A stretch of DNA of 64,000 bases from an uncultured bacterium (GCA_963707655.1 OY970172.1:160001-224000), one strand, 5' to 3'; counted from the first letter of the stretch, positions 3,180-54,357 are shown. Translations and numbers: made by a program. Notes: generated by a model from the sequence alone, not told the origin.

Positions 3180-3812
3180 GTGGGACAAAAGGTTAATCCA
3201 ATAGGATTTCGTTTAGGTGTCTACCGTGATTGGGATGCTCGCTGGTTTGCCAGAAAGTCTTACGGACTAGAGCTTTTGGAAGATATTTCTATAAGAAATT
3301 ATTTGAATCGAGCTTTGGAAAATGCTGAAATAGCTCGTGTTGAAATTGAAAAATCTGTTGATAGTGTTCGCATCATTCTCCATTCTGGTCGCTCCGGTGT
3401 TGTGATTGGTAAAAGAGGCCAGGGAATTGAAGCTTTGAAAAATGATTTGGCTTCCTTGCTCAAGAAAAAGAATATAGAAATTTCGGTGCAAGAAGTTAAG
3501 AGCCCCGAGCTTAACGCTACCTTGGTAGCTAAAAACATTGCTGATCAATTGGTCAAGCGAGCAAGCTTTAAAAAAGTGATGAAAAGAGCAGCTCTTTCTG
3601 CTATTAAGAGTGGCGCAAAGGGTATAAAGATTTGCTGTGCCGGCCGTTTGAATGGCGCTGAGATAGCGCGAGAAGAGTGGACTCGCGTAGGATCTATTCC
3701 TTTGCATACATTACGATCAGATGTTGATTATGGGGTTGCAGAAGCTAAAACGACTTATGGTATTATTGGTATTAAGGTGTGGATCTGCAAAGGCGAATAT
3801 CAGCTTCCTTAG
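3180..3812 (+). CDS. rpsC: 30S ribosomal protein S3
   Basis: MGQKVNPIGFRLG, GRLNGAEIAR, PLHTLRSDVDYG. Confidence 0.98.
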   Translation: MGQKVNPIGFRLGVYRDWDARWFARKSYGLELLEDISIRNYLNRALENAEIARVEIEKSVDSVRIILHSGRSGVVIGKRGQGIEALKNDLASLLKKKNIEISVQEVKSPELNATLVAKNIADQLVKRASFKKVMKRAALSAIKSGAKGIKICCAGRLNGAEIAREEWTRVGSIPLHTLRSDVDYGVAEAKTTYGIIGIKVWICKGEYQLP

Positions 3813-41021: not shown

Positions 41022-42757
41022 AATTTATTGAAGTTGCCGACTATTTTCAAAAGATTGAGCAAGAGAGCTCACGATTAAAAATTACTCATCTGTTAGGTGA
41101 ATTGTTTAAACAGGCTGACGCGCAAGAAATCTCTATCATCGCCAATCTCTCTTTGGGCCAACTGCATGCTCCTTATCTTGGCAAACAGTTTAACATGGCA
41201 GACAAAAATTTAATTAAAATTATTGCCGATCTGTTACACGAGACTGAACATACTATAGCCCAAGAGCTAAAATTGGTGGGAGATTTGGGTATTATCGTTG
41301 GCGCAGGCACCTGGCAAGCAAAAAAAGAATTATCGGTCAATGATGTCTATGTCGCATTAAATAGCATGCAACAAATCAGTGGGACAGGATCACAAGAAGA
41401 AAAAAGCATTTATTTGGTTGCGTTACTGAATGATCTCGATCCCCTGTCAGCAAAATATATTGTGCGTATTATTCTGGGCAAGCTGCGGCTTGGCTTTTCT
41501 GATATGACTATAATTGACGCTCTTTCTTGGATGGAAGCGGGCAATAAATCATTGCGCGGCATTATTGAAAATAGCTATAATATATCGGTTGATATTGGCT
41601 ATATTGCGCAAACGCTTAAAAGCAGCGGAGTCAAAGCACTGGAAAATATGCAGATTCGCATTGGTGTGCCTATTCGTCCCGCAGCGGCAGAGCGCTTGCC
41701 AACAGCGCGCGCAATTATAGAAAAATTAGGACCATCGATCGCGCAGCCCAAACTTGATGGCTTTCGTTTGCAAATTCACTTAAAAAAAACCGATAACAAA
41801 ACAGAAATTCATTTCTTTTCTCGCAACCTTCTTGATATGTCATACATGTTTCCTGATATAGCTCGGGCTATTGAAACATTGGATGTGCAAGAGCTCATTT
41901 GCGAAGGGGAAGCAATCGTCTATGACACTCATACCAATACGTTTTTGCCGTTTCAAGAAACGGTAAAAAGAAAACGTAAACATGGTATTGAGCAAGCGGC
42001 AGAAGAGTTTCCTCTGCGCGTTTTCATTTTTGATCTTCTCTATCTCAATGGCAAAGATTTCTTGAATAAAACACATGAAGAGCGCCGCACGCGACTGCTT
42101 TCTCTGTTCAAAGATTTTCCCAGCCAAGCAGTACAAGTTATTGGTGAACTACCGGTGAACACCGCTCAAGAGCTAGAAAATTATTTTGCTGCCAATATTG
42201 CAGCCGGACTTGAAGGGCTCGTAGTAAAACGGGCCGATGCAATTTACCAACCGGGAAAACGTAATTTTAACTGGATTAAATTAAAGCGCCAGGAAGAGGG
42301 CCACTTAGAAGATACCGTTGATTGTGTAATTCTTGGCTACTACGCGGGAGAAGGCAAACGAGCTAGTTTTGGCATAGGTGCATTTTTGGTTGGGCTGTAT
42401 CATCCGCAGCAAGATCGTTTTGAAACAATCGCAAAAATTGGTACCGGTCTTTCTGATGAGCAATGGATTGAATTAAAAAAGAAGTGTGATGCAATTATGG
42501 TGCACGACAAGCCGAAAAATGTGCTGGTAGGCAAAGAACTTGCGCCACATGTTTGGGTTGATCCGTCAATCGTCTGTATCATTCGTGCAGATGAAATTAC
42601 TATATCTCCGGCGCATACTGCCGGCAAAACGGAACATAAACTCGGGTATGCATTGCGCTTTCCCCGCTTTATGGGTTATCGCAGTGACAAAAGTGCCGAT
42701 GAAGCAACAACAATACACGAAATAGAGCGCATGTATCAGGACCAATTCAGAAAATAA
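41018..42757 (+). CDS. ATP-dependent DNA ligase (LigI/archaeal-like, with N-terminal DNA-binding domain)
   Basis: KLDGFRLQIH, CEGE, FDLLYLNG, EGLVVK, Y.PGKR..WIKLK, ALRFPRF..R.DK. Confidence 0.95.
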   Translation: MKFIEVADYFQKIEQESSRLKITHLLGELFKQADAQEISIIANLSLGQLHAPYLGKQFNMADKNLIKIIADLLHETEHTIAQELKLVGDLGIIVGAGTWQAKKELSVNDVYVALNSMQQISGTGSQEEKSIYLVALLNDLDPLSAKYIVRIILGKLRLGFSDMTIIDALSWMEAGNKSLRGIIENSYNISVDIGYIAQTLKSSGVKALENMQIRIGVPIRPAAAERLPTARAIIEKLGPSIAQPKLDGFRLQIHLKKTDNKTEIHFFSRNLLDMSYMFPDIARAIETLDVQELICEGEAIVYDTHTNTFLPFQETVKRKRKHGIEQAAEEFPLRVFIFDLLYLNGKDFLNKTHEERRTRLLSLFKDFPSQAVQVIGELPVNTAQELENYFAANIAAGLEGLVVKRADAIYQPGKRNFNWIKLKRQEEGHLEDTVDCVILGYYAGEGKRASFGIGAFLVGLYHPQQDRFETIAKIGTGLSDEQWIELKKKCDAIMVHDKPKNVLVGKELAPHVWVDPSIVCIIRADEITISPAHTAGKTEHKLGYALRFPRFMGYRSDKSADEATTIHEIERMYQDQFRK

Positions 42758-42788
42758 TGGCTTCTTTGCCTATTAATAGTATTACAAT

Positions 42789-42825
42789 AAAAAGCGGTCC
42801 TTTTTTTTAGAAAGAACCGCTTTTT
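42789..42825. terminator. Bidirectional terminator
   Basis: AAAAAGCGGT..ACCGCTTTTT. Confidence 0.8.
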
Positions 42826-42842
42826 ATTTTTTGGCTATTTTG

Positions 42843-43343
42843 TTATTGTTTGACTGCTTTTTCTATGGTATTAAAAGCGGTATCAACAACCACGTGGCAA
42901 ACGTATCGTAATGTTTGTCTGGCAGCAAATAATACTACTAATGCGTGGGGCATGTCTGCGTCTTTTTGTTCGTGCAAAGCATCATACGGTCTAGGAGACA
43001 GCAAGGCGTTGATCATTTTTTCAACGATTAATGTTTTTGCAGCTTCTCTACCTGTCGCTTTAAGTTGCTCAGCGGGTGTCTTGTTGCCATTGTCAACAAA
43101 CGTAGATGTTGCATTGCCGATTACTTCTATAGCTTCACTCTTATTTAATAGAGTATAACCTCGTATCGATATGAAAGGTGATGAGCGTTTCTGGAGGCCA
43201 ATTTTCAGGCCGTTTTTTATTACCCAACAGATTCTGTCGCTCGATTCAGGGGTTTCAGGAGCTGCGTTGATATCGTCACTCTCGCTTCCATTTATAAAAG
43301 AAATTACCATTAACAATGAAAGCATCAATTTAGAGAAATTCAC
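42843..43343 (-). CDS. Hypothetical secreted protein (paralog A)
   Basis: GTG start after AGGAG, signal peptide; shares AAKT...EK motif with 43634-44179. Confidence 0.75.
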   Translation of the reverse strand: MNFSKLMLSLLMVISFINGSESDDINAAPETPESSDRICWVIKNGLKIGLQKRSSPFISIRGYTLLNKSEAIEVIGNATSTFVDNGNKTPAEQLKATGREAAKTLIVEKMINALLSPRPYDALHEQKDADMPHALVVLFAARQTLRYVCHVVVDTAFNTIEKAVKQ

Positions 43344-43480
43344 GGAACTCCTATTAGAATAAAAAAATAATAAATTTTATATGTTATTGATCGCAACTCA
43401 ATTGTAATTTTAACAGATAGAGTTTTTTTGTAAAAATTATTTTTAAAACATGTGGTTGTGATACGTACAATGTGCCCGTT

Positions 43481-43539
43481 GAAGCAACAACAATACATGA
43501 AATAGAGCGCGCATGTATCAGGACCAGTTTAGAAAATAA
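43481..43539 (+). repeat. Displaced copy of DNA ligase 3' end (matches 42701-42757)
   Basis: GAAGCAACAACAATACAYGAAATAGAGCGC(GC)ATGTATCAGGACCARTTYAGAAAATAA, 780 nt downstream of the original. Confidence 0.95.
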
Positions 43540-43573
43540 AGCGCACAGAAAAATTTAATTCATTGTAGAGCAT

Positions 43574-43610
43574 AAAAAGAGGCAGTCTTTTTTACGAGAC
43601 TGCCTCTTTT
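43574..43610. terminator. Bidirectional terminator
   Basis: AAAAGAGGCAGTCT..AGACTGCCTCTTTT. Confidence 0.88.
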
Positions 43611-43633
43611 ATTATCCAGTTACTATGTCAGTA

Positions 43634-44179
43634 TTATGGTTTGTGATTGTGCTTTGCGGGGCAATATTTTGCTTCTACGCTATTGACCACGGTAGCAGCA
43701 ACGGCACGAGCACTGGTGGTGAGCGCCAAATTTGCAAGGTAGGCAGCGTTTGAATCACCTTGCAAGCATGCAGGAGTAGAGATGCCGGTCATTGCTTGTG
43801 TTTTAGCGATTGCAAATTTAATAAAAGCTACTACTTTTTCAGCTGCATAGGTTTTAGCCGCTTGTGCCACTACGGCGGTTGCTACCGCTTTAGGATCTTT
43901 GTTGCTTCTGTCGGCAGAGCTCAACTCATTGATAATCACAGCGCCAGCATCTGTTGCCACTGCTGCAACATCACTGCTATTTATTACGCTTATGCCTTTT
44001 ACGTTAAATTGTATTTTGTATTTTTTGTCTAGGAGTTGTTTGATGCCTTCTTTAGCAAACACATTCCGAGCTTCAGTAGCATAATTCGCGTCAAGATCAG
44101 CGCGTTTTATCGAGATTGCTGAGTTCGCAGAAGAAATGAGCATTAATAAAGAAAAGATAACAATTTTTGAAGATTTCAT
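43634..44179 (-). CDS. Hypothetical secreted Ala-rich protein (paralog B)
   Basis: Signal MKSSKIVIFSLLMLISSANSA; similarity to 42843-43343. Confidence 0.78.
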   Translation of the reverse strand: MKSSKIVIFSLLMLISSANSAISIKRADLDANYATEARNVFAKEGIKQLLDKKYKIQFNVKGISVINSSDVAAVATDAGAVIINELSSADRSNKDPKAVATAVVAQAAKTYAAEKVVAFIKFAIAKTQAMTGISTPACLQGDSNAAYLANLALTTSARAVAATVVNSVEAKYCPAKHNHKP

Positions 44180-44311
44180 ATGATTCCTTCATAAGAATGA
44201 AACTAAAAATATTACTTCATTGATTTGCATTGAAGTCAAAGCAAATCGGCATCACTCTAATACGGCTCATTAATTTTGTAAATGTTTTTGAAGATCGAGC
44301 CTCATTTTTTG

Positions 44312-45685
44312 CTATTTTTTGTATAGTTTTTTGGTCATAGCTGCCTGTTGAGCATGCTCAACGATTGGGCGCGGATAATGCGCAATTATAGGGCTTTTCG
44401 GTTTGTACCAGGTATGAATAACAGGAGGCGTTAGGAGATTTAATTCTGGCACCCATTTTTTTATATATGCACAATGAGCATCAAATTTTTTCTGCTGAAG
44501 CCACGGGTTGAAAATTCTAAAATAGGGCTGAGCATCACAACCGGTGGAGGAAACCCATTGCCAATTGCCATTATTCACTGCAGGGTCATAATCTATCAAT
44601 TTCTGTGCAAAATAGCGCTCGCCCCAGCGCCAGTCAATGTGTAAATCTTTGACCAAAAATGAGCCAACCACCATGCGAACTCGATTATGCATGTAGCCAG
44701 TGGCATTGAGTTCTCTCATGCCAGCGTCAACGAGAGGAAATCCTGTGGTTCCCGTGCACCAGGCAGTAAATTTTTTTGCATCATTTTCCCAGCGTAAATT
44801 GTTGTAATGTTGCTTAAATGCATGCCCAAACACACGGGGAAAATTAAAGGCTACGTGAGTAAAAAAATCACGCCAGTATAATGCGCGAATTAATTCATGA
44901 GATTTTCCCAACTGTTTGCATAAAGCGTGATACAGTTCACGGATAGAAACGGTACCAAATTTATTATGCGCAGATAGATGGGTTGTTGCGTCAAGTGCAG
45001 GAAATTCCCGCTCATGTGCATAATTTTTGTATTCTGCAAGACTTTTTACAATTTTCATCGCATTACTTCTGCCGCCAGGTATGGCATGTTTATTCTCAGA
45101 AGGGCAGATTTTTTTGTAGAGAGATTCAGGGCAAGCAAGCGCTATTTTTCCCGTATAAAAATGCATGGTAGCGGCCCTTTGCGGCTTGCGGACAGTCATA
45201 GCGCGTGTAGCATGTTTAAAAAAGGGAGTGAACATTAAATAGGGAGTATTGCTTTTTGTTTTTACTTCTTCGGGTTCATGGAGCAGGGCGTCAGCATACT
45301 GATGAAAAGTCACCGCATGCTCAGCGCATATTTTTTTAAGTGCAGCATCCCGCTCAATGCTAAAAGGCGTATAATCTCGATTACAAAAAACTGCTTCTAT
45401 TTTTTCTTGTTTGATCAAAGCAGCGACTATTTTTTCAGGATTGCCATCAAAAAGATAAAGATGTGCTTTGCGGTTTTTAAGCTGTTTATTTAAATCTTGC
45501 AGCGATTGGACCATGAATTGAATGCAGTTATCGCTCTTGTATTCATTTTCATTGCCCACTTGCCGGGGGTCAACTATAAAACAGGGAATAATTGATGCTG
45601 ATATTTTTGCCGCTTGCATAAGGGAAGTATTATCTTCAAGCCGAAGATCTCTTCTAAAGATGAAAAGTGATTTTTTATAACGCAT
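44312..45685 (-). CDS. phrB: Deoxyribodipyrimidine photolyase
   Basis: FRRDLRLEDN, WRDFF, TGFPLVDAGMREL..TGYMHNRVRM, DYDPAVNNGNWQW, RIFNP. Confidence 0.95.
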   Translation of the reverse strand: MRYKKSLFIFRRDLRLEDNTSLMQAAKISASIIPCFIVDPRQVGNENEYKSDNCIQFMVQSLQDLNKQLKNRKAHLYLFDGNPEKIVAALIKQEKIEAVFCNRDYTPFSIERDAALKKICAEHAVTFHQYADALLHEPEEVKTKSNTPYLMFTPFFKHATRAMTVRKPQRAATMHFYTGKIALACPESLYKKICPSENKHAIPGGRSNAMKIVKSLAEYKNYAHEREFPALDATTHLSAHNKFGTVSIRELYHALCKQLGKSHELIRALYWRDFFTHVAFNFPRVFGHAFKQHYNNLRWENDAKKFTAWCTGTTGFPLVDAGMRELNATGYMHNRVRMVVGSFLVKDLHIDWRWGERYFAQKLIDYDPAVNNGNWQWVSSTGCDAQPYFRIFNPWLQQKKFDAHCAYIKKWVPELNLLTPPVIHTWYKPKSPIIAHYPRPIVEHAQQAAMTKKLYKK

Positions 45686-45817
45686 AACACCACCCCTTTT
45701 TATAGCAGACCTGTTTTATTAGCATCATTGCATCGCATTACTATTTTTTCAAGAAATAGGTGGATGATTATGAGCCAAGTGCAGAAAATCTTTATTGGGC
45801 GCGCTTTTTTGAATTAT

Positions 45818-46582
45818 TTAGATGGTCAATAACCGTCGTCTGGATAAGGACTCAAAAGTGATGAAATCTTCATTGCGGAAATCTTCGGGGCAATCGTCTT
45901 CTGAAGAATCGAACGCTGAAGCATCCGCACTTACTATCGCTCGCGCGAGTGGATTTGGTACCGGTTCTATTGTTTTGAGATAGGCTTCGTGTGCCAGCTT
46001 AACTCTTTCCTGCGACTGATTAACGTAGTCTTGAAAACTGCTCGGCTTTAGAGTGACCGGCGGAATAGCAATATGGTTCTCTAAAGGAAATATATTTTTT
46101 GCCGCTTGGGTTCGTCTTTGGCATTGCAACTCTCTAGATTTTTTGATCCATTCTGTCCTTGATATTTCATTCCACCACCAAATTCGGCTGTTTAGTGCGC
46201 CAAGTTCGGTCATGATTTCTTGCGCATGGGGGCACGCCTGTAGTTTGGTTCGGCGTTCTTTTTCTTGTCCCTCTTGTGTGATACATTCGATAGTAATAAG
46301 TTTATCGTATTCTGCTCGAAGCCTATCGCGGTACGAAGTGAGATTTCTACCAATTTTTGCTTCGTTATCGATTATTATTTCTTCAGTAAGAAATTTTGCT
46401 TGCACTTTTCTAACGTAGGGTTTTTCCACCCCAAAGTACCATGCGCTATACACCAAGGAGCCCATACCAACAATGGCACCCGTGGCTATAGCCGTCTTAG
46501 ATGCATACCATGGCTGAATCTCTCCTGCTTGGGCTGATGCGAGCGCTAATAATCCACTTAAGGCGATTTTTTTTGTGTTCAT
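45818..46582 (-). CDS. Hypothetical exported protein
   Basis: Signal MNTKKIALSGLLALASAQA, a TM helix, then a charged helical region. Confidence 0.7.
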   Translation of the reverse strand: MNTKKIALSGLLALASAQAGEIQPWYASKTAIATGAIVGMGSLVYSAWYFGVEKPYVRKVQAKFLTEEIIIDNEAKIGRNLTSYRDRLRAEYDKLITIECITQEGQEKERRTKLQACPHAQEIMTELGALNSRIWWWNEISRTEWIKKSRELQCQRRTQAAKNIFPLENHIAIPPVTLKPSSFQDYVNQSQERVKLAHEAYLKTIEPVPNPLARAIVSADASAFDSSEDDCPEDFRNEDFITFESLSRRRLLTI

Positions 46583-46723
46583 GGCTGACCTCATTTTATA
46601 ACGTATTATTTTAACGTTTTTGAAGCATGCCACATTTTATCATATGTGTAAAATTGCAATAGAATATGAGGGCTGATGAGCAGAAAAGATAGGCTAAGAA
46701 AATCTTCTGTAGGTATATTTAAC

Positions 46724-47353
46724 TTAATGGTTTTTATTGCACAATTCATAATAATAGCGCGCTTCTTCTCGTGGATTTTCGCTGCCGGTAATGCCGCGGC
46801 CAATAACAATACCATGAGGTTTTAAAGAGAGGATCTGTTGAATGACATCTCGTTTTATTTTAGCAGAAATAAATATGGGCACCGAGGCATTGCCTTGTAC
46901 AAAATCCCAATGATCAAGAAAGGCTAAAGCATCTTTTTCATCAGCGGGCTGGTGCAGCAGAAGAGCGTCTACACCCAAGCTTTTTGCTTCCAGGGCTGAT
47001 TGTGCCGGAGAACTTGCATCCACTAAATCGAGCATTACTTTTTTGTTGGCATCATGTGCGCTCATGCAGGCAGCATGAATCACCTGGCGACTTGTGCCGG
47101 CCATGACGGTAATCCAATCAGCCCCGGCTGAAGTGAATATGTGTGCCGCTTCTTTTCCGCGATCAACAATTTTACTATCGGCCATAATAATTTTGTGGGG
47201 AAATTTTTCTTTAAATTGTGTTACTGCATGGTAACCATGATAATAAATAAGCAGAGTTCCTACTTCAAAAATATCGGCATAATCTTGTATTTGTTGCGCA
47301 ACAGCAAGGGCACGAGACAAATCAGTAGTATCAAAAGATATTTGAAGTTTCAT
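46724..47353 (-). CDS. OMP decarboxylase/HUMPS family protein (3-hexulose-6-phosphate synthase-like)
   Basis: MKLQISFD, EVGTLLI, ADSKIVDRG, GADWITV, VIGRGIT. Confidence 0.85.
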   Translation of the reverse strand: MKLQISFDTTDLSRALAVAQQIQDYADIFEVGTLLIYYHGYHAVTQFKEKFPHKIIMADSKIVDRGKEAAHIFTSAGADWITVMAGTSRQVIHAACMSAHDANKKVMLDLVDASSPAQSALEAKSLGVDALLLHQPADEKDALAFLDHWDFVQGNASVPIFISAKIKRDVIQQILSLKPHGIVIGRGITGSENPREEARYYYELCNKNH

Positions 47354-47377
47354 TTTTTCCTTTTTTATCGCCTATCA

Positions 47378-48088
47378 TTATAGCTTCATGAGGCTACGCA
47401 TATCTTTTTTATCAAGCTTATATTGTATCGATAGAGTGCCAAAAAATAGGTTTAAATTGAGCATATAAAGGGCCTCAGCTATTTTATTGATACCAGGCTT
47501 GACGTAGATATCAGGAAGCAATAGATGAGGGCTCGGGTTGGTCACGGTTGCTCCCAACGGAATATAGATATTTTCTGGGCGCGCAAGAATGGTAATAGAG
47601 GCGAGTGGTATAACATTGTCGACCGGTATGGGCGCTTCTTGAAGATCCCAATATAAAAGCCCTGTTTCATGATCTTCTTTTTGTTCGGCCAAGATTATTT
47701 TTACCGGCTCCCCTTTGTTGAGCTCCCAGTGATGAATAGTATTGCCAATCATCATGATTGGGGTAATTTCCGGCGTAACAATTAGATAGAGTCGGCTGCT
47801 TTGTTGTAAGCGAGGAAAGATAATGCGTCCATTGTAATCTGAAACGGAAATGTATCCGGCGTAGGTAGTAAAAATGCCCGATACGAATTTGCTCTCTTTT
47901 TGAAATGCTTGTAGGTGGTTGCCAACATTTAATGAATGATCTAGGTGTTGTTGGGCATTTTGTGCGATGACCGGATAAGGGCGAAAAGCAAGCGAGACAA
48001 CATGGGTTGCCTGCGCGGTACCGGCGACCATACATATGATGAGTACACTGTTTTTTATGAAATGATCATGAATGAATGTATATTGCAT
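47378..48088 (-). CDS. Hypothetical exported beta-rich protein
   Basis: Long ORF with a signal-like segment (VLIICMVAGTAQA); no family recognised. Confidence 0.65.
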   Translation of the reverse strand: MQYTFIHDHFIKNSVLIICMVAGTAQATHVVSLAFRPYPVIAQNAQQHLDHSLNVGNHLQAFQKESKFVSGIFTTYAGYISVSDYNGRIIFPRLQQSSRLYLIVTPEITPIMMIGNTIHHWELNKGEPVKIILAEQKEDHETGLLYWDLQEAPIPVDNVIPLASITILARPENIYIPLGATVTNPSPHLLLPDIYVKPGINKIAEALYMLNLNLFFGTLSIQYKLDKKDMRSLMKL

Positions 48089-48177
48089 GTTTCCAATTCT
48101 CAAAAGAGGAGTATACTGCTTCTACTTATGATGATAGCAGAGAGTTTTTTCTAAAATCTATGGTTCAAGGGCAAGAG

Positions 48178-48852
48178 ATGAATCTTATTGATCAATTAGG
48201 AAAAAAGGGGGAGCAGGCATGGCATCAATTATGCAAAAAATATCAACTAACTGTTGAGCAACAAGAGCAGTTTGCTCGTTATTTAGCGCTGTTGCGTACA
48301 TGGAATGAAAATATCAATCTTACCGCTATAGTTGAGCCGGCAACAATTATTACCCATCATTTTCAAGATTCTTTGGAAATGGGGACTTATATTAACATTG
48401 AAAATCTTACCAGTATTGCTGATGTCGGTTCCGGAGCCGGTTTTCCTGGCATTCCCTTAAAAATTAAATACCCCCATTTACGTATGGTTCTCATTGAAGT
48501 GACCGGCAAGAAAATCGCTTTTTTACGCATGGTCATACAAGAACTTGGTCTTACCGATGTTGAATTGTACACATTGGATTGGCGCACGTTCTTGCGCAAA
48601 ACAGATGATCAGATTGATCTTTTTGTGTCCCGTGCTTCATTGGCTCCTGCGGAATTAATACGTATGTTTAGGCCAAGCTCCCCTTACAAAGATTCATTTT
48701 TAGTCTATTGGGCTTCTAAAGATTGGCAGCGGGGAGAAGAAGAAGCTCCCTTTGAAAAACAAGAATATGCTTATCAGATAGGGATAAAAAAAAGAAGATT
48801 AATTATATTTGGTAATGCTGCATTGCCTGAAAATTTGTTAAAAAAAATATAG
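48178..48852 (+). CDS. rsmG: 16S rRNA G527 N7-methyltransferase
   Basis: WNENINLTAI, HFQDSL, DVGSGAGFPGIPL, KKIAFL, SRA. Confidence 0.93.
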   Translation: MNLIDQLGKKGEQAWHQLCKKYQLTVEQQEQFARYLALLRTWNENINLTAIVEPATIITHHFQDSLEMGTYINIENLTSIADVGSGAGFPGIPLKIKYPHLRMVLIEVTGKKIAFLRMVIQELGLTDVELYTLDWRTFLRKTDDQIDLFVSRASLAPAELIRMFRPSSPYKDSFLVYWASKDWQRGEEEAPFEKQEYAYQIGIKKRRLIIFGNAALPENLLKKI

Positions 48853-48924
48853 GAGAGTAAGATCAGGGAGGCAAATGCCTACCTTGAACCTATAGAACTT
48901 TTTAGCATTCAAAAGGAAAAACAT

Positions 48925-50325
48925 ATGAAAAGAGGATTGTTGGCAAGCTATGTAGCAGGATTGACTGACAGGGAGCACGGCGAAAGCTATCGCACTATGA
49001 TACGCTATTTTTTTCCTGAATTTATTACGTCATTTCTCCTTTATTCCATGCCCTTAATTTTAGATGTTATATTCATCAGCCATTTAAAATCGACGCCTAC
49101 GTACACCGCATTGGGAACTACCAATAATTTTATTCATTTTTTAATCAAAATGGCTGAAGCATTTTCTGTCGGTACCATGATATTATCGGGTCAATTTAAT
49201 GGGGTTAATAGCTTGCGCGATGTGGGACGATCATTGCGCGATGCATTTTGGAGCGCTTTTATTGTTGGCTTGGGTGCGGCTCTCGTTCTCTATTTTGGTG
49301 CAGCAACCATTCTGACTTGGTATGGGGCACATGAGCAGATTCTTCCTATCGCGGTTCCTTTTCTCCGCATTCGCGCTATAGGAGTTTTTTTTATGTTTAT
49401 TTTCTTTGCGCTCATTGGCTTTATGCGTGGCGTCAAAAACACAAAAACCCCCATGTTTCTTTTTATGTTTGGTGCCGCTACTTTTATTTTGTGTGATTAT
49501 CTGTTCATTTTCGGCAAATGGGGAATGCCTGCCCTTGGGTTGCAAGGCTCCGCCTACGCTACCATATGTCAGTATGTACTCATGCTTATTGTTGCTTTTG
49601 GCATTATTTTATCTGATCCCCTCTATCGTAAATATGGGATCGATCTTTTTAATATTTTTAGCGATACCACATACATCAAACAATTTTTGACGGTCACGTG
49701 GCCGGTTGCTCTGGATAAAGCAACCATTGCGTTTGCTTATATTTGGCTAGGGAAAATGATTGCAGGGATGGGGTTGAGTGCGCAAACTACTTTCTGTGCC
49801 ATTAAAGACATTGAGCGCTTTTCTTTTCTTCCCGCTATTGCATTTGCTCAAATTATAACTTTTTTGGTAAGCAATGATCTGGGCAAACAAAAGTGGCAGG
49901 CGATTAAAAGCAATATTAAAAAATCACTTTTTCTCGCGAGTTTTGTGATCGCCCTCTTGCTGATCTTTTGTTATACTTTTTTGGATACGATTATCTCATT
50001 TTTTGATTGTACGAAGGGGATTACTCCTGTCGTACGGCAGATATTTCCGATGGTGAGTATACTTGTTTTCTTTGACCTGCTACAATTAATCTTATCCGGC
50101 GCTTTGCGCGGTTCTGGCAATGTGCGCGTGGTTATGATGGTAAGATTAATGGTATGTATCTGCTACTTTGGCCCATTTTCATATATTCTTTCCCATCTGC
50201 CGATTCAGGATGAAACAGTGAAATTTATGTTGGTTTATGGATCGTTTTATATAGGCAACGCTTTAATGAGCTTGTTATATATTCAACGGTTTCGCGGCCA
50301 GGATTGGAAAACGCATTCAATATAG
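48925..50325 (+). CDS. MATE family efflux transporter
   Basis: About 12 TM, RGVKNTKTPM, GMPALGLQGSAYAT, GALRGSGN. Confidence 0.9.
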   Translation: MKRGLLASYVAGLTDREHGESYRTMIRYFFPEFITSFLLYSMPLILDVIFISHLKSTPTYTALGTTNNFIHFLIKMAEAFSVGTMILSGQFNGVNSLRDVGRSLRDAFWSAFIVGLGAALVLYFGAATILTWYGAHEQILPIAVPFLRIRAIGVFFMFIFFALIGFMRGVKNTKTPMFLFMFGAATFILCDYLFIFGKWGMPALGLQGSAYATICQYVLMLIVAFGIILSDPLYRKYGIDLFNIFSDTTYIKQFLTVTWPVALDKATIAFAYIWLGKMIAGMGLSAQTTFCAIKDIERFSFLPAIAFAQIITFLVSNDLGKQKWQAIKSNIKKSLFLASFVIALLLIFCYTFLDTIISFFDCTKGITPVVRQIFPMVSILVFFDLLQLILSGALRGSGNVRVVMMVRLMVCICYFGPFSYILSHLPIQDETVKFMLVYGSFYIGNALMSLLYIQRFRGQDWKTHSI

Positions 50326-50331
50326 GATATT

Positions 50332-50616
50332 ATGGCAATTATTTCTCGGGAAGAAGTTCTTAAACTTGCGCGTATGTCTAATCTTTCAATTCATGATAAT
50401 GAAGTTGAAGGGATTATGAAACAGATTGAAGATGTTCTTACGTATGCGGCGCGCGTGCAGGAAATTAAAGAAGATGTTACCCTTGCTGCAATGAAAAACA
50501 TTAATAGGGTTCGTGAAGATCTGGTTATTCCTACCGATCCTGCGCCACTTCTTGCACAGGCTCCTGAACAAGAAGCCAACTATTTTGTAGTTCCCGCTAT
50601 TCTAGAACATAAATAA
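50332..50616 (+). CDS. gatC: Asp/Glu-tRNA amidotransferase subunit C
   Basis: ISREEVLKLARMS.L, VRED, AP....YFVVPAI. Confidence 0.92.
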   Translation: MAIISREEVLKLARMSNLSIHDNEVEGIMKQIEDVLTYAARVQEIKEDVTLAAMKNINRVREDLVIPTDPAPLLAQAPEQEANYFVVPAILEHK

Positions 50617-50631
50617 AAGGTTTTTTTAACG

Positions 50632-52086
50632 ATGGCTACTCTTGCTTTTGCAACAATCAAAGAACTCAAAGATAAATTGGAAAAAAAAGAGATATCTTCT
50701 TCTGATCTTCTTGCCCATTCCATTGAACGATTTAAAAAATATGATGTACAATTAGGCTCCGCTTTGGAAGTTTTTGAGCATCAATCAATTCTTAATAAAT
50801 CGAGCAACAAAGGGAACCTTGCGGGTATTCCCGGTCTTGTTAAAGATAATATTGCCCAAGAGGGGCGCGCACTCTCATGCGCTTCAAAAATTTTGTCTAA
50901 TTTTACCTCAACATATGACGCTACAGCAATTGCCCGTCTGAAAAATGAGGGAGCGTTGCTCGTTGGTCGCGCCAACATGGATGAATTTGCCATGGGTAGC
51001 TCTACCGAGACCTCAGCATATTTCAAAACAAAAAATCCATGGGATGCGCAGAGAGTTCCCGGCGGTTCAAGTGGTGGCTCTATAGCAGCAGTTGCCGCTG
51101 GCTTGGTGCCATTCGCCTTGGGTTCCGATACCGGTGGTTCGGTAAGGCAGCCCGCAGCCTTTTGTGGTATCGTTGGGCTTAAGCCAACATATGGTTTGGT
51201 TTCTCGATATGGCTTGGTTGCTTATGGTTCATCTCTTGACCAAATTGGGGTTGCCACCCGTTCTGTGTACGACGCTGCATTAGTTTTATCTGCAATGGCG
51301 GGACAAGATATTAAAGATTCATCAACACTTGCCGCTGAAAAAAAAGATTACACTGACAAGCTCGATGGCAAAATGCCTTCAAAATTGGTCATTGGTGTAG
51401 TGGAAAACGCCGTGAATGCAACGGGAATGGACGAAGAAGTTAAAGCATTGGTTGAGAATGCAATTGTGCAATTGGAAAAATTAGGCGCAACTATCAAACG
51501 TATTACCATACCAAGCATGGATTATAGTGCGGCAGCTTATTTTATTATCAGTCGCGCTGAAGCCGCTTCAAATCTTGCTCGTTTTGATGGAGTGCGCTAT
51601 GGCATGCGTGATAAAAATGCTGCCACATTGGGCCAAATGTATAGCAACACACGTCATGACGGTTTTGGACCTGAAGTAAAAAGCAGAATTTTAATTGGCA
51701 ATTACGTGCTCTCTGCCGGACATGCCGGTGCTTTCTATGAAAAAGCGCGCAATGTACAACGTATGATCCGTCATGAATTTATGGAAGCATTTAAAGACAT
51801 TGATCTTTTAGTCATGCCAACACAACCGGCTCCCGCTTTTGAATTCGGGGCGTTTGATGTAGATAAATTGCAAATGGATTTGCAGGATTATTTTACCTGT
51901 CCCATTAACTTAGCTGGTATTCCTGCGCTTTCAGTTCCCTGTGGTTTCACCAAAAAAGAATCTTTGCCTATTGGTTTTCAATTGGTTGGGCCTCACTTGT
52001 CAGAGGAATTGTTATGCCAGGTAGCACACGCATATGAGCTTTCACAGCCGTGGGCAACAACTCATCCCAAAGCATTTGTAGAGTAA
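50632..52086 (+). CDS. gatA: Asp/Glu-tRNA amidotransferase subunit A
   Basis: KDN, NMDEFAMGSSTE, PGGSSGGS, GSDTGGSVRQPA, EAASNLARFDGVRYG. Confidence 0.98.
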   Translation: MATLAFATIKELKDKLEKKEISSSDLLAHSIERFKKYDVQLGSALEVFEHQSILNKSSNKGNLAGIPGLVKDNIAQEGRALSCASKILSNFTSTYDATAIARLKNEGALLVGRANMDEFAMGSSTETSAYFKTKNPWDAQRVPGGSSGGSIAAVAAGLVPFALGSDTGGSVRQPAAFCGIVGLKPTYGLVSRYGLVAYGSSLDQIGVATRSVYDAALVLSAMAGQDIKDSSTLAAEKKDYTDKLDGKMPSKLVIGVVENAVNATGMDEEVKALVENAIVQLEKLGATIKRITIPSMDYSAAAYFIISRAEAASNLARFDGVRYGMRDKNAATLGQMYSNTRHDGFGPEVKSRILIGNYVLSAGHAGAFYEKARNVQRMIRHEFMEAFKDIDLLVMPTQPAPAFEFGAFDVDKLQMDLQDYFTCPINLAGIPALSVPCGFTKKESLPIGFQLVGPHLSEELLCQVAHAYELSQPWATTHPKAFVE

Positions 52087-52100
52087 GCTATTTAAAAATT

Positions 52101-52133
52101 AAAGAGGCTCGGGATTCCCGGGCCTCTTTTTTT
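52101..52133. terminator. Bidirectional terminator
   Basis: AAAGAGGCTCGGG-ATT-CCCGGGCCTCTTTTTTT. Confidence 0.88.
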
Positions 52134-52158
52134 ATAGTAAACGTTGCTTATATGCTAT

Positions 52159-52488
52159 TTAATTTCCCTTGGGAAAAAAGTAAAAGCCATTGGAATTAGT
52201 TCTTTCGAAAAATTCGGCGGCTGTGAAAGATAACTCGCCGGTATATCCGATGAAGGGTATATGGTAATTCTCTCGGTTTACCGGTGTATGGTGTTTCTCG
52301 TTTATCAGCACTAAGATCTCAGCAAGGGTAGTTTTCTTGGTTATATCTATATCATACGTTGCGGTAGGATCAAACGTTCCGGTATCATTTTTTTGTGCTA
52401 CAAATACTTTAATTATTTTGTGTTGTTCTTCCGCTCCACGAGCCATAGAAAAGCTTGCCAATAAGCAGAGTGCAATCGCTTTAATCAT
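52159..52488 (-). CDS. Secreted small protein, ubiquitin-like pattern (copy 3)
   Basis: Signal + AEE; IKVFV..YDIDITKKTTLAEILVLINEKHHTPVN. Confidence 0.7.
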   Translation of the reverse strand: MIKAIALCLLASFSMARGAEEQHKIIKVFVAQKNDTGTFDPTATYDIDITKKTTLAEILVLINEKHHTPVNRENYHIPFIGYTGELSFTAAEFFERTNSNGFYFFPKGN

Positions 52489-52520
52489 ATCAATTCCCTC
52501 TTTAATAACGATTTTCTATG

Positions 52521-52868
52521 TTATTTAATTGGCTTGGGGAAGAACCCAATGATATCACCCTGAGCTGCGTTAAAAAAATCTTTGACCGTTGCGACCCTCG
52601 TTAGATTGCAGGGTGCTTTTATAATGCTTTCACCGGTATCTCTCACAGCACTTATGCAATATTCGGTTGAATTTAGAGTGTAATTGTGTGCGCTATTCAA
52701 TACCGTTACGAGCTCATCTATGGTACTCTCGCGGGCCATAGTTATCTCAAATAGTTGGTTAAAGCCATTGTTCTGTTGTACAAATACTTTAATTGGTTTT
52801 TGTGCTTCTTCAGCGGCATGAGCCATAAAAAAGCTCGCCAATAAGCAGAGTGTCAATTTTTTAATCAT
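52521..52868 (-). CDS. Secreted small protein, ubiquitin-like pattern (copy 2)
   Basis: Signal + AAEE; IKVFVQQNNG..FEITMARESTIDELVTVL. Confidence 0.7.
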   Translation of the reverse strand: MIKKLTLCLLASFFMAHAAEEAQKPIKVFVQQNNGFNQLFEITMARESTIDELVTVLNSAHNYTLNSTEYCISAVRDTGESIIKAPCNLTRVATVKDFFNAAQGDIIGFFPKPIK

Positions 52869-52878
52869 ATCAATTCTT

Positions 52879-53238
52879 TCATTTTAAGGACTTATGCCAG
52901 AACGCAATAACATTACTATTAGTTTTTCTCAAAACGTCTACCACTGTGTGGGAGGCGAGCGGCGCTGCCGATAGAGTAGGATTGCCTTGATTAAGTTTTG
53001 TACCGTCATTTAATAGCGTGGTTATGAAGTACTCATTGTTGTTTACGGGGCACTTATGGGTATTATTCAATAATGTTTCGAGCTCGATTATTGTAGTGTT
53101 GTTCGTTATATTGAGAGCAAGGGTTTTGACTGTCTTTGTTTTTGTGTACACCAATACTTGAATTTTTTGTGGGGATTCTTCAGCAGCATGAGCTACAAAA
53201 AAAATTACTAACAAGCACAGGGGCATTATTTTAATCAT
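52879..53238 (-). CDS. Secreted small protein, ubiquitin-like pattern (copy 1)
   Basis: Signal + AAEE; IQVLVYTKTKTVKTLALNITNNTTIIELETLLNNTHKCPVN. Confidence 0.7.
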   Translation of the reverse strand: MIKIMPLCLLVIFFVAHAAEESPQKIQVLVYTKTKTVKTLALNITNNTTIIELETLLNNTHKCPVNNNEYFITTLLNDGTKLNQGNPTLSAAPLASHTVVDVLRKTNSNVIAFWHKSLK

Positions 53239-53319
53239 ACCAATTCCTTATATCACGTTGTGTATCAATAGATAATTTAACTAAAGCTATTGTACGGTGA
53301 TTTGTTTAAATGGCAATGA

Positions 53320-53397
53320 TTATTGTGTCGAGTTGCTCATGCTTATGGGCTTTCACAGCCATGGTCTACCAAATCGCCATTTGCTTTCCATGAGTAA
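53320..53397 (+). repeat. Displaced, diverged copy of gatA 3' end (matches 52009-52086)
   Basis: Encodes LLCRVAHAYGLSQPWSTKSPFAFHE* versus GatA LLCQVAHAYELSQPWATTHPKAFVE*. Confidence 0.92.
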
Positions 53398-53496
53398 TAA
53401 AAAACAGCTTTTTTATTTTTACTTGAAAAGAAAAATACACCTTCAGTACACTGTAGTGTGTGGGGCAAGCTTAGGCTTTTGAGCCGGGGTGAGGGT

Positions 53497-54357
53497 ATGT
53501 GGTCGAAAAAAAAAGATCTGATTTACATAATATTTTTCTTTCTGTCATCTGTAAGCATAATAGAAGGCGAGATGCAAAATTCTTGCGTTAAAAAAGGTCT
53601 TGGCTACAAAGAAATTCGTTACCGGCGGGTGCAGGCAGGAAAAAATAAAGATCCTTATATTTTTGCCGACATTTTTAAAGACATTTTTTATTTAAACTAT
53701 AATCTTCTGAGCGTTGATACGTTTAAAGTATTTGTTGGCGTGTTTCCTTTTTATATCGCCGCGCGCATGATTGAGACTCCGTTGCAGAGTAATTTTTATT
53801 GTGGGCAGCATCACAAAAACCTTAAGCAGATGCCTTGGTGGTGTGATGGCGCCGCCCGTTTTGGCTTGGCGCTCCCTTTGGTTGGCTTGGGCAGTCTTGC
53901 TTTTTTTGCACATGATGAAGAGATTCGGCAGACGAGTTGGGCATTTATTTTGGGTATGCCATTTCTGATTTTTGGTAATAAAATAACTAAACGATTTACT
54001 TTTGATGGCTGTGAGCGGCCGTGGCATGAAAAATTCAGTTGCACTAAACGCGCTTGCGGCGGGTTTCCTTCCGGTCATATGGCTGAAGTAACGTATATGG
54101 CCGCCTTATATGGCTCTCGTTTTGGCTACAAATGGGGGATTCCATTGGGTGTTTACGGTGCTTTTGTCGGGGTAAATTTTTTGGTCAGCAATCGCCATTA
54201 TCTTTCACAATTGGTCGGCGGTGTTGGCTGGGGATTAATGTACACCTATGCGGCAAACAAATTGATTGATAGCAAGATGAATAAATATAATATGCGGCTC
54301 TCTATGACCAATGATTTTCGCGGGGCGCCTGCAATGCGTCTTGCTTGTTCTTTCTAA
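53497..54357 (+). CDS. PAP2 family phosphatase
   Basis: K......RP, FPSGH, NRHYLSQ..GG; hydrophobic helices. Confidence 0.82.
   Translation: MWSKKKDLIYIIFFFLSSVSIIEGEMQNSCVKKGLGYKEIRYRRVQAGKNKDPYIFADIFKDIFYLNYNLLSVDTFKVFVGVFPFYIAARMIETPLQSNFYCGQHHKNLKQMPWWCDGAARFGLALPLVGLGSLAFFAHDEEIRQTSWAFILGMPFLIFGNKITKRFTFDGCERPWHEKFSCTKRACGGFPSGHMAEVTYMAALYGSRFGYKWGIPLGVYGAFVGVNFLVSNRHYLSQLVGGVGWGLMYTYAANKLIDSKMNKYNMRLSMTNDFRGAPAMRLACSF

Follow-up and report, generated by a model that had tools for sequence, protein, structure and literature searches.

Introduction

The 3′ ends of transfer RNA (tRNA), transfer-messenger RNA (tmRNA) or protein genes serve as insertion sites for integrative elements and genomic islands, which bring a replacement for the end with them, and direct repeats of the target 3′ end then bound the insert while the gene stays intact. 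A similar arrangement was analysed here in the window, i.e. the whole stretch of 64,000 nucleotides (nt) that comprises bases 160001-224000 of G000, the single-contig genome of an uncultured bacterium (1.09 Mb, 41% G+C; the source names on the closest GatA proteins are Candidatus Dependentiae and Babeliales). Behind two housekeeping genes of the window, the ATP-dependent DNA ligase gene lig and the gene gatA, an orphan copy of the 3′ end is found downstream of the intact gene and is separated from it by foreign DNA. We refer to the orphan copies as relics and to the DNA between gene and relic as islets. In contrast to integrative elements, the two sites have no integrase, no core at the repeat edge and no tRNA, and the inserts are 0.7-1.2 kb long.

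Three other described systems share single features with these loci. Homology-facilitated illegitimate recombination is known from Acinetobacter, Streptococcus pneumoniae and Pseudomonas stutzeri and has been proposed for the type VI secretion system (T6SS) effector-immunity arrays of Vibrio cholerae (PMC5361080). There, as at our loci, foreign DNA lies beside a conserved anchor, no integrase is involved and older material is pushed downstream; the process uses one homologous and one illegitimate junction (PMC5361080), a combination which we infer here from one genome and its relatives. What differs is the displaced piece, which here comprises only the final 20-26 codons of a housekeeping gene and leaves the protein as it was. 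In the C-terminal (3′-end) displacement of rhs, contact-dependent inhibition (CDI) and T6SS genes, a new 3′ end arrives together with partner genes and the old end is orphaned downstream, where such orphan 3′ ends form strings (PMC5361080, citing Jackson et al. 2009), which resembles our loci. However, the new tail in those systems specifies another toxin domain, so that tail and payload are one, whereas at our loci the two tails code for almost the same residues and separate convergent genes form the payload. In the lpl tandem paralog cluster of Staphylococcus aureus, the evolving unit reaches from the 3′ region of one gene across the spacer into the 5′ region of the next (PMC2568036), so that duplication units ignore gene ends and partial copies arise; this account fits two further relics of G000 behind a PLA2_B-type gene and a transketolase gene, and it does not fit the lig and gatA pairs. 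Homology through the whole duplicated unit, which characterizes local tandem duplication, is present in the transketolase case, partly present in the PLA2_B case and absent from gatA and lig.

The original prediction for this DNA was that islets of secreted-protein genes are bounded by a second copy of the end of the preceding gene and are formed by a dedicated cassette integration system, with entry by a single homologous crossover at conserved gene ends. In this study, we show that both tail duplications are real, and we propose with moderate confidence that the relics are scars of additive recombination between lineages at variable spots of the genome. This confidence refers to the reading as a whole and not to the chemistry of the junctions.

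Results

For detection of tail duplications, 1168 genes were called in G000 as open reading frames (ORFs), and for the 959 of them with at least 100 amino acids (aa), the last 25 codons were compared at the protein level with the 6 kb downstream of the same gene, with 959 mismatched pairs as the null. The null scores had a median of 27 and did not exceed 43, compared with 96 for gatA and 55 for lig, the latter being split by a frameshift. At the nucleotide level the lig pair reached 75.4 bits and the gatA pair 38.3 bits, and the chance expectation was 0.18 own-pair matches of at least 35 bits per 959 tests. The tail duplications at lig and gatA are real and far beyond chance, as had been predicted.

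The last 62 nt of lig are repeated about 0.8 kb downstream, and both copies end in TAA. In addition to three transitions at third codon positions, the two copies differ at their 5′ edge by an A/T change, and the relic contains a 2-nt insertion; across the aligned 60 nt they are about 95% identical. The last 78 nt of gatA are repeated about 1.3 kb downstream (53320-53397 for the repeat proper) with 50 of 78 bases identical; the relic translates as LLCRVAHAYGLSQPWSTKSPFAFHE and the gene tail as LLCQVAHAYELSQPWATTHPKAFVE, with the stop at the same position. A TGA stands directly 5′ of the gatA relic, the relic frame has no start codon, and the similarity of the pair ends at the stop codon without extension into the flanks. 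The relic occupies the position where relatives carry the true gatA stop, ahead of the PAP2 gene. The layout claimed originally, i.e. gene, terminator, convergent signal-peptide genes and a relic with its stop codon, was seen at both loci, and at lig the gene s181 and a further terminator were found behind the relic in addition. Strong hairpins with an A-tract before and a T-tract after them stand behind lig, the lig relic and gatA, and no terminator was found after the gatA relic in the hairpin energy search. Assembly chimerism as the origin of the repeats was ruled out, since the identical runs between the copies are too short for a k-mer misjoin and contigs from public sequencing runs cross two junctions. 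Seven public runs each contain small parts of the window; the junction between gatA relic and islet and that between gatA tail and terminator each lie inside a contig of one public run with 0 differences, and this run may derive from the source sample. Fragments identical to the window come from soil, peat and wetland settings, and no RNA run was listed among the datasets with parts of the window.

The history of the gatA tails was examined by codon position and site class. The raw differences between gene and relic at the three codon positions are 4, 6 and 18, and 16.0 of 17.2 synonymous sites differ compared with 12.0 of 57.8 replacement sites. Restricted to the first 15 codons, these counts are 9.0/10.2 and 2.0/34.8, which equals the pattern between the working gatA genes of G000 and the sister species G001 (7.0/9.5 synonymous, 2.0/35.5 replacement). 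An excess of third-position differences alone proves nothing, because a constrained gene compared with a neutral relic also gives one; the case for two coding histories at gatA rests on the few replacement changes in the relic. Local duplication was simulated in 20,000 runs at each of seven rates, with a gene that takes synonymous changes only and a relic under no constraint. At every rate, a neutral relic as extreme as that of gatA arose in at most 0.045% of the runs for the first 15 codons and at most 0.025% for all 25. From the site counts and the simulation, the gatA relic was working coding sequence for most of the time of separation. The original argument that mostly synonymous differences speak against neutral decay thus held through the simulation and not through the third-position excess by itself, and the claim that both ends were coding before they met is supported. 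A first calculation in favour of neutral decay of the gatA relic (relic-specific changes 4, 4 and 7; p 0.55) was dropped, as it ignored seven third positions that differ in all three sequences.

The gatA relic is of the genus type, with LLC, SQPW and a two-residue extension. Among the 120 tails listed, only P0006 and P0007 otherwise have these features, and the relic is identical to none of them; the same-genus sequences were G000, G001 and an 11-kb contig encoding P0006, which is the closest GatA, at 91% over the last 90 residues. In G001, a different gene stands behind gatA, encoding one signal-peptide protein of 289 aa, and no recognisable gatA relic was found there. In front of the PAP2 gene, G000 and G001 are homologous from about 10 nt past the stop of the relic onwards, and G001 keeps this region without a relic. 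To judge from these sequences, the gatA relic may be either the resident end or a newcomer together with the PAP2 gene. A 61-aa ORF with a GTG start (window 53297-53482, plus strand) overlaps the gatA relic in another frame, and nothing marks it as a gene.

At lig, the direction could be read with G001 as the outgroup. The G001 tail has the base of the relic at all three sites where gene and relic differ, and its stop codon is directly followed by a terminator with the stem GAGGCAG/CTGCCTC, as is the stop of the relic in G000, while the G000 gene is followed by a GCGGT/ACCGC stem and then by s166. Because G001 shares both the bases and the terminator, the lig relic with its terminator is the ancestral 3′ end and the 780 bases ahead of it are the newcomer. 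All three substitutions are assigned to the lineage of the functional tail. Under a model with a neutral, locally copied relic, three or more of four substitutions would hit the functional tail with p 0.02-0.05. A recent local duplication of the lig tail is untenable, because tails that are about 95% identical carry unrelated terminators. The sequence GTGCC is common to the regions left of both lig copies and is a possible microhomology; at the gatA junctions only AAT-like matches were seen. Each pair thus appears, by its sequence pattern, to unite tails from two lineages, with the weaker statistics at lig. The lig event is recent and the gatA event is old. Of the ancestral-tail comparison suggested with the original prediction, the lig part gave a clear answer, with the original end left downstream as proposed, and the gatA part would fit a foreign origin of either side.

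Gene order in the family is lig, o209 and o241 on the opposite strand, then o258, MatE, gatC, gatA and PAP2 on the strand of lig, where o209, o241 and o258 are conserved ORFs labelled by their length in aa. A conserved anchor gene was in reach at 22 of 29 lig loci; it lies less than 200 nt from lig at 7 of these, whereas at the other 15, including G000, the two are separated by varied genes over 0.7-7 kb. PAP2 was found downstream of gatA on the same strand at 16 of 29 loci, with a gap of about 20-190 nt (i.e. within about 200 nt) in 10 and of 0.6-3 kb in the other 6. Since the gaps from lig to the anchor and from gatA to PAP2 vary widely, both places are family-wide variable spots, and the empty sites that had been asked for are present in relatives. 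Of the 29 loci examined for each gene, 2 carry a relic behind lig and 1 behind gatA; the downstream sequence was short at several of the loci.

The second lig relic was found in another genus (G016, genus g16). It is 26 nt long, 24 of its 26 bases are identical including an exact run of 19 nt, and it lies 1.9 kb downstream of the gene (at about 3573-3598 of the contig). The islet in front of it (L033, G016:C19 3597-5106, minus strand) encodes an AbiU2-type HEPN protein of 192 aa and an APH-family phosphotransferase of 304 aa, contains no recombinase, and has a payload that is unrelated to those of G000 and does not look secreted. The lig relic of G016 is an independent third case. Borderline nucleotide matches behind gatA in G004 and G003 (scores 20 and 18) were rejected as gapped chance alignments. 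When the GatA tail was searched across the order, 241 of 261 genomes gave a match; second matches inspected in 10 genomes were rejected as full-length paralogs, frameshifts or contig splits, and one possible gatA relic in G243 lies on another contig. Among metagenome contigs found through the MatE neighbour, 25 loci were obtained, and the single close one (88% identity, 4 kb) stops short of both islets. Two full-length GatA-like amidase genes stand in tandem, about 1.46 kb apart, in several genomes (G104, G107, G109, G120 and G122) of f3, a different family of the order.

The features of both loci are listed in Table 1.

Table 1. Features of the lig and gatA loci, in window coordinates
Feature	Position	Strand	Remarks
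lig, ATP-dependent DNA ligase, 579 aa	41018-42757	+	Pfam DNA_ligase_A_N, _M, _C; protein 83% identical in sister species G001
Functional lig tail, upstream repeat copy	42696-42757	+	Derived base at each of the three sites of difference from the relic, with G001 as outgroup
Two-way hairpin terminator brought with the islet, stem GCGGT/ACCGC	42786-42828	.	-19.1 kcal/mol, z -5.0; unlike the terminator behind lig in G001
s166, 166 aa, signal-peptide-like start, payload of the lig islet	42843-43343	-	ORF and translation; no Pfam family
Promoter-like site 5′ of s166	43407-43434	-	TTTACA-16-TAAAAT with TG, 10/12 matches; consensus match alone
lig tail relic, ancestral 3′ end, frame broken by 2-nt insertion	43476-43539	+	G001 base at the three differing sites
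Ancestral lig terminator, stem GAGGCAG/CTGCCTC	43575-43610	.	-23.4 kcal/mol, z -8.0; same stem right after the lig stop in G001
s181, 181 aa, small signal-peptide protein, member of resident family	43634-44179	-	33% identical 196-aa homolog at the matching G001 locus
gatC, 5′ of gatA	50332-50616	+	Pfam GatC
gatA, 484 aa	50632-52086	+	Pfam Amidase 3e-137; protein 83% identical in G001
Functional gatA tail, upstream copy	52009-52086	+	
Two-way terminator after gatA, part of the islet	52101-52129	.	13-bp stem, -22.9 kcal/mol
s109	52159-52488	-	Tandem paralog, signal-peptide-like start
s115	52521-52868	-	Tandem paralog, signal-peptide-like start
s119	52879-53238	-	Tandem paralog, signal-peptide-like start
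Promoter-like site of s119, abutting the relic	53289-53316	-	TTGCCA-16-TACAAT, 10/12 matches; consensus match alone
gatA tail relic: TGA, 25 codons, stop	53317-53397	+	About 60 nt ahead of the PAP2 gene; second match E 8.2e-5
PAP2-family membrane phosphatase gene, conserved right-hand neighbour of gatA	53458-54357	+	Pfam PAP2

All five small proteins of the two loci have hydrophobic, signal-peptide-like N-termini, as judged by eye, and none of the five matched a Pfam family. The three proteins of the gatA islet, with 109, 115 and 119 aa, are 33-35% identical among themselves, and s166 and s181 of the lig locus share 28% identity (E 1e-5 in a pairwise comparison), part of which lies in the signal peptide. 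No homolog of s166 was found in 5 relatives searched. For the s109-s119 family, no relatives were found in a scan of one genome per species, and a search of 80 family genomes returned G000 itself and one marginal match in G001 (E 0.009). The payload families were not found elsewhere in the G000 genome either, and they are confined to this genome or genus. The small genes of the islets evolve very fast, because the s181 homolog at the matching G001 locus has diverged to the low identity given in Table 1; since the G001 members stand at 25-34% identity, the s181-like family is a genus-wide, fast-diverging local array. Beside o241 in G001 (L064, G001:C1 901-2325, minus strand), two signal-peptide proteins, one of 196 aa and the other of 231 aa, are encoded together with a fragment of the s181-like family.

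From the protein atlas, nothing usable was obtained for s181, and the leads for s119 were all below 0.9. An AlphaFold2 model of the s109/s115/s119 family (mean predicted local distance difference test score 71.6) had top Foldseek matches that were nearly all ubiquitin, SUMO, NEDD8 or Ufm1 (E 1e-3 to 7e-3), and the language-model neighbours of the family, at 0.80-0.82, were with ubiquitin and Rad60-SLD families. On these weak leads, a beta-grasp fold of the ubiquitin type may follow the signal peptide in s109, s115 and s119.

Between s181 and o209 lie a DNA photolyase gene (457 aa) and an unassigned 271-aa ORF (window 44312-46633, minus strand). Because the gap between lig and o209 is 9 nt in G003, both belong to the variable stretch behind lig. 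A paralog of the 271-aa ORF with 26% identity is encoded at about 674 kb. Elsewhere in the genome, open frames of 7391 aa (G000:C1 555819-577994, minus strand) and 4091 aa (442908-455183, plus strand) were noticed, which are rich in internal repeats and stand amid many tandem paralog arrays.

Discussion

We propose that each relic is the scar of an addition of DNA from another lineage. The donor would be a relative that carried a different gene set behind lig or gatA, and one end of its DNA would have been spliced in through the conserved housekeeping region, while the other end would have joined illegitimately within the last 20-26 codons of the resident gene. The product would be an intact gene with the tail of one lineage, followed by a foreign terminator and payload and then by the tail of the other lineage as an orphan, which would since have begun to decay. 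Such a product is the one that homology-facilitated illegitimate recombination predicts, and its topology is that of 3′-end displacement at rhs and T6SS effector loci. Insertion and then deletion, in two steps, would give the same outcome. Both the type of the second junction and the route by which the DNA entered the cell are steps which we infer. A crossover inside the tails is unlikely, because the longest identical runs are short (12 nt in the middle of the gatA repeat, 18 nt in the lig repeat) and the synonymous differences predate the meeting of the tails; with runs this short, the single homologous crossover at the gene end of the original prediction is implausible. Where genes stand only tens of bases apart, illegitimate addition may offer the sole workable route for new genes. 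G000 encodes RecA, a ComEC-type competence domain, DprA and Ku, and these are permissive only. The Ku-domain gene is at G000:C1 555158-555697 (minus strand), and a second, shorter ATP-dependent ligase-like gene was noted at 796408-797247 (minus strand).

Several points weigh against this proposal. No lineage was found among the sequences searched that has lig, terminator and s166 without the relic, or a working gatA with a relic-type tail, and no donor genome was found. Most islets at the lig and gatA spots of relatives have no relic, so that the scar-forming route would be a minority outcome or scars would be lost quickly. If the donor had diverged as far as the synonymous saturation at gatA implies, homologous anchoring would have been very inefficient. 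At lig, the statistics are marginal, with 4 substitutions and one outgroup, and the microhomology is 5 nt only. The weak likeness of s166 and s181 (28%), together with upstream regions that look somewhat alike by eye, would allow a local origin of the lig islet with later homogenisation of the tails. Two species of the genus could be compared, one of them with a contig that ends 453 nt past lig. In four of the seven public runs, only contigs of 150-316 nt identical to the window were present, a coverage too thin to test for joints that skip the islet or close a circle.

Integrase-borne elements whose attachment site contained the replacement tail could also have inserted at the 3′ ends of lig and gatA and have lost the integrase and most of the cargo by later deletion. 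Such elements would explain flanking direct repeats that correspond to the target 3′ end and stop at its stop codon, as well as two coding-like tails, and four PF00589 (tyrosine recombinase) matches were found elsewhere in G000, at 379 kb, 467 kb (two) and, weakly, 1003 kb, compared with 202-213 kb for the islets (serine recombinases were not searched genome-wide). The recombinase domain at 467 kb (G000:C1 467385-467892, minus strand) is split over two frames of 271 and 95 aa and looks frameshifted or broken. However, a Pfam scan of 14 proteins around both islets found no recombinase in or near them, in agreement with the original prediction, and the islets are filled with small genes that leave no recombinase fragment. 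Neither pair has an identical core at the 5′ edge of the repeats, which is the place where the crossover is predicted. The two sites share no motif beyond an 8-mer, which was reached in 75-82 of 300 shuffles, and no tRNA lies at either site. Integron traits were also not seen, as there is no integrase nearby and a repeat search found no palindromic element common to the islets (attC models were not run), nor was any repeated or structured element common to the islet ends found. With inserts of 0.7 and 1.2 kb, the recent lig event would in addition demand a fast and clean loss of the remainder. We consider an origin from integrase-borne elements unlikely.

Closer to the integration system of the original prediction is the possibility that mini-cassettes of tail, terminator and payload circulate and enter by a single homologous crossover, with RecA or a recombinase acting in trans. 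The layout was seen twice within 10 kb, a third lig-tail case exists in the other genus, both tails evolved as coding sequence, and genes for RecA and uptake are present, all of which would suit such cassettes. On the other hand, the identity of the tails is too low for RecA given the run lengths above, the payload families are unseen elsewhere except for the marginal G001 match, the G016 payload is of another kind, and only 3 of 58 locus-genome pairs contain a relic. Among the public-run contigs, neither circles nor alternative joints appeared, and the thin coverage keeps this from counting as a test. Circulating cassettes are in our judgement quite improbable, and a dedicated integration system is not supported, as the sites have no motif in common beyond the chance 8-mer, the payloads are local orphans and relics are rare.

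Local tandem duplication, with the left boundary of the unit inside the gene tail and later divergence, does operate in this genome. In the genome-wide scan, 34 tails exceeded the maximum of the null, and most of them match the tail of a full-length tandem paralog. Two further true relics were found. The first belongs to a PLA2_B-type lysophospholipase gene (G000 708613-710184, minus strand), of which a 47-nt relic with 87% identity is found at 708081-708127; it is placed within a tandem array of five small signal-peptide genes, between the final two, with weaker homology into the flank. The second belongs to a transketolase gene (993400-995283, minus strand), the tail of which is repeated inside a 1.13-kb (1133 nt) tandem repeat that is 73% identical over its whole length and consists of paralogous PGAP1-like lipase genes. 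The two cases are ordinary tandem duplications with a unit boundary inside the neighbouring gene, so the search for further cases asked for with the original prediction yielded two more relics of another origin. A mirror scan for 5′ heads also gave a few partial copies; local duplication is active in G000 and produces relics. The islet genes are themselves tandem paralogs, which would fit the same process. For gatA, however, local duplication is rejected by the simulation, the homology is confined to the tail in both directions, and the relic is not followed by a paralog. For lig it would need gene conversion, as the nearly identical tails are followed by terminator stems that differ and by genes of 28% identity, and G001 matches the terminator of the relic and not that of the gene. 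We therefore give local duplication little chance as the source of the two pairs.

Least probable of all, and very doubtful in our view, is that the relics were kept for a function as small RNA, peptide or promoter part which mimics coding-like conservation: a promoter-like TTTAAA-18-TACAAT on the plus strand just 5′ of the lig relic, the terminator after that relic and the position of the gatA relic directly 5′ of the PAP2 gene would fit it, but the gatA relic keeps its amino-acid meaning with saturated synonymous sites, which is not expected of an RNA or promoter role, its frame opens after a TGA without a start codon and that of the lig relic is shifted, the sole consensus match for a PAP2 promoter lies 3′ of the gatA relic and not inside it, no Rfam family was found above its threshold, and G001 retains the region upstream of PAP2 without a relic.

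The reading of the relics as scars of additive recombination between lineages has consequences for annotation and for method. The relics should be annotated as pseudo-fragments and not as genes, and two functional histories should be claimed from an excess of third-position differences between gene and relic only with the help of an outgroup or a simulation. For the biology of the group, which has small genomes and is probably host-dependent, the scars would be direct sequence evidence of DNA exchange with relatives and would show the gain of lineage-specific secreted-protein genes at fixed spots between conserved genes, and the orphan tails would let the direction and relative age of such gains be read from one genome. 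A bolder idea, to which we attach only slight credence, is that the last codons of conserved genes serve as portable address labels among co-occurring Dependentiae, so that short modules composed of a tail, a terminator and a payload are taken up and, with no integrase, dock behind lig or gatA as the matching gene and swap secreted or defence genes, with G016 as a second use of the lig dock. If this is true, the lig and gatA spots would be recurrent docking sites for secreted or defence genes.

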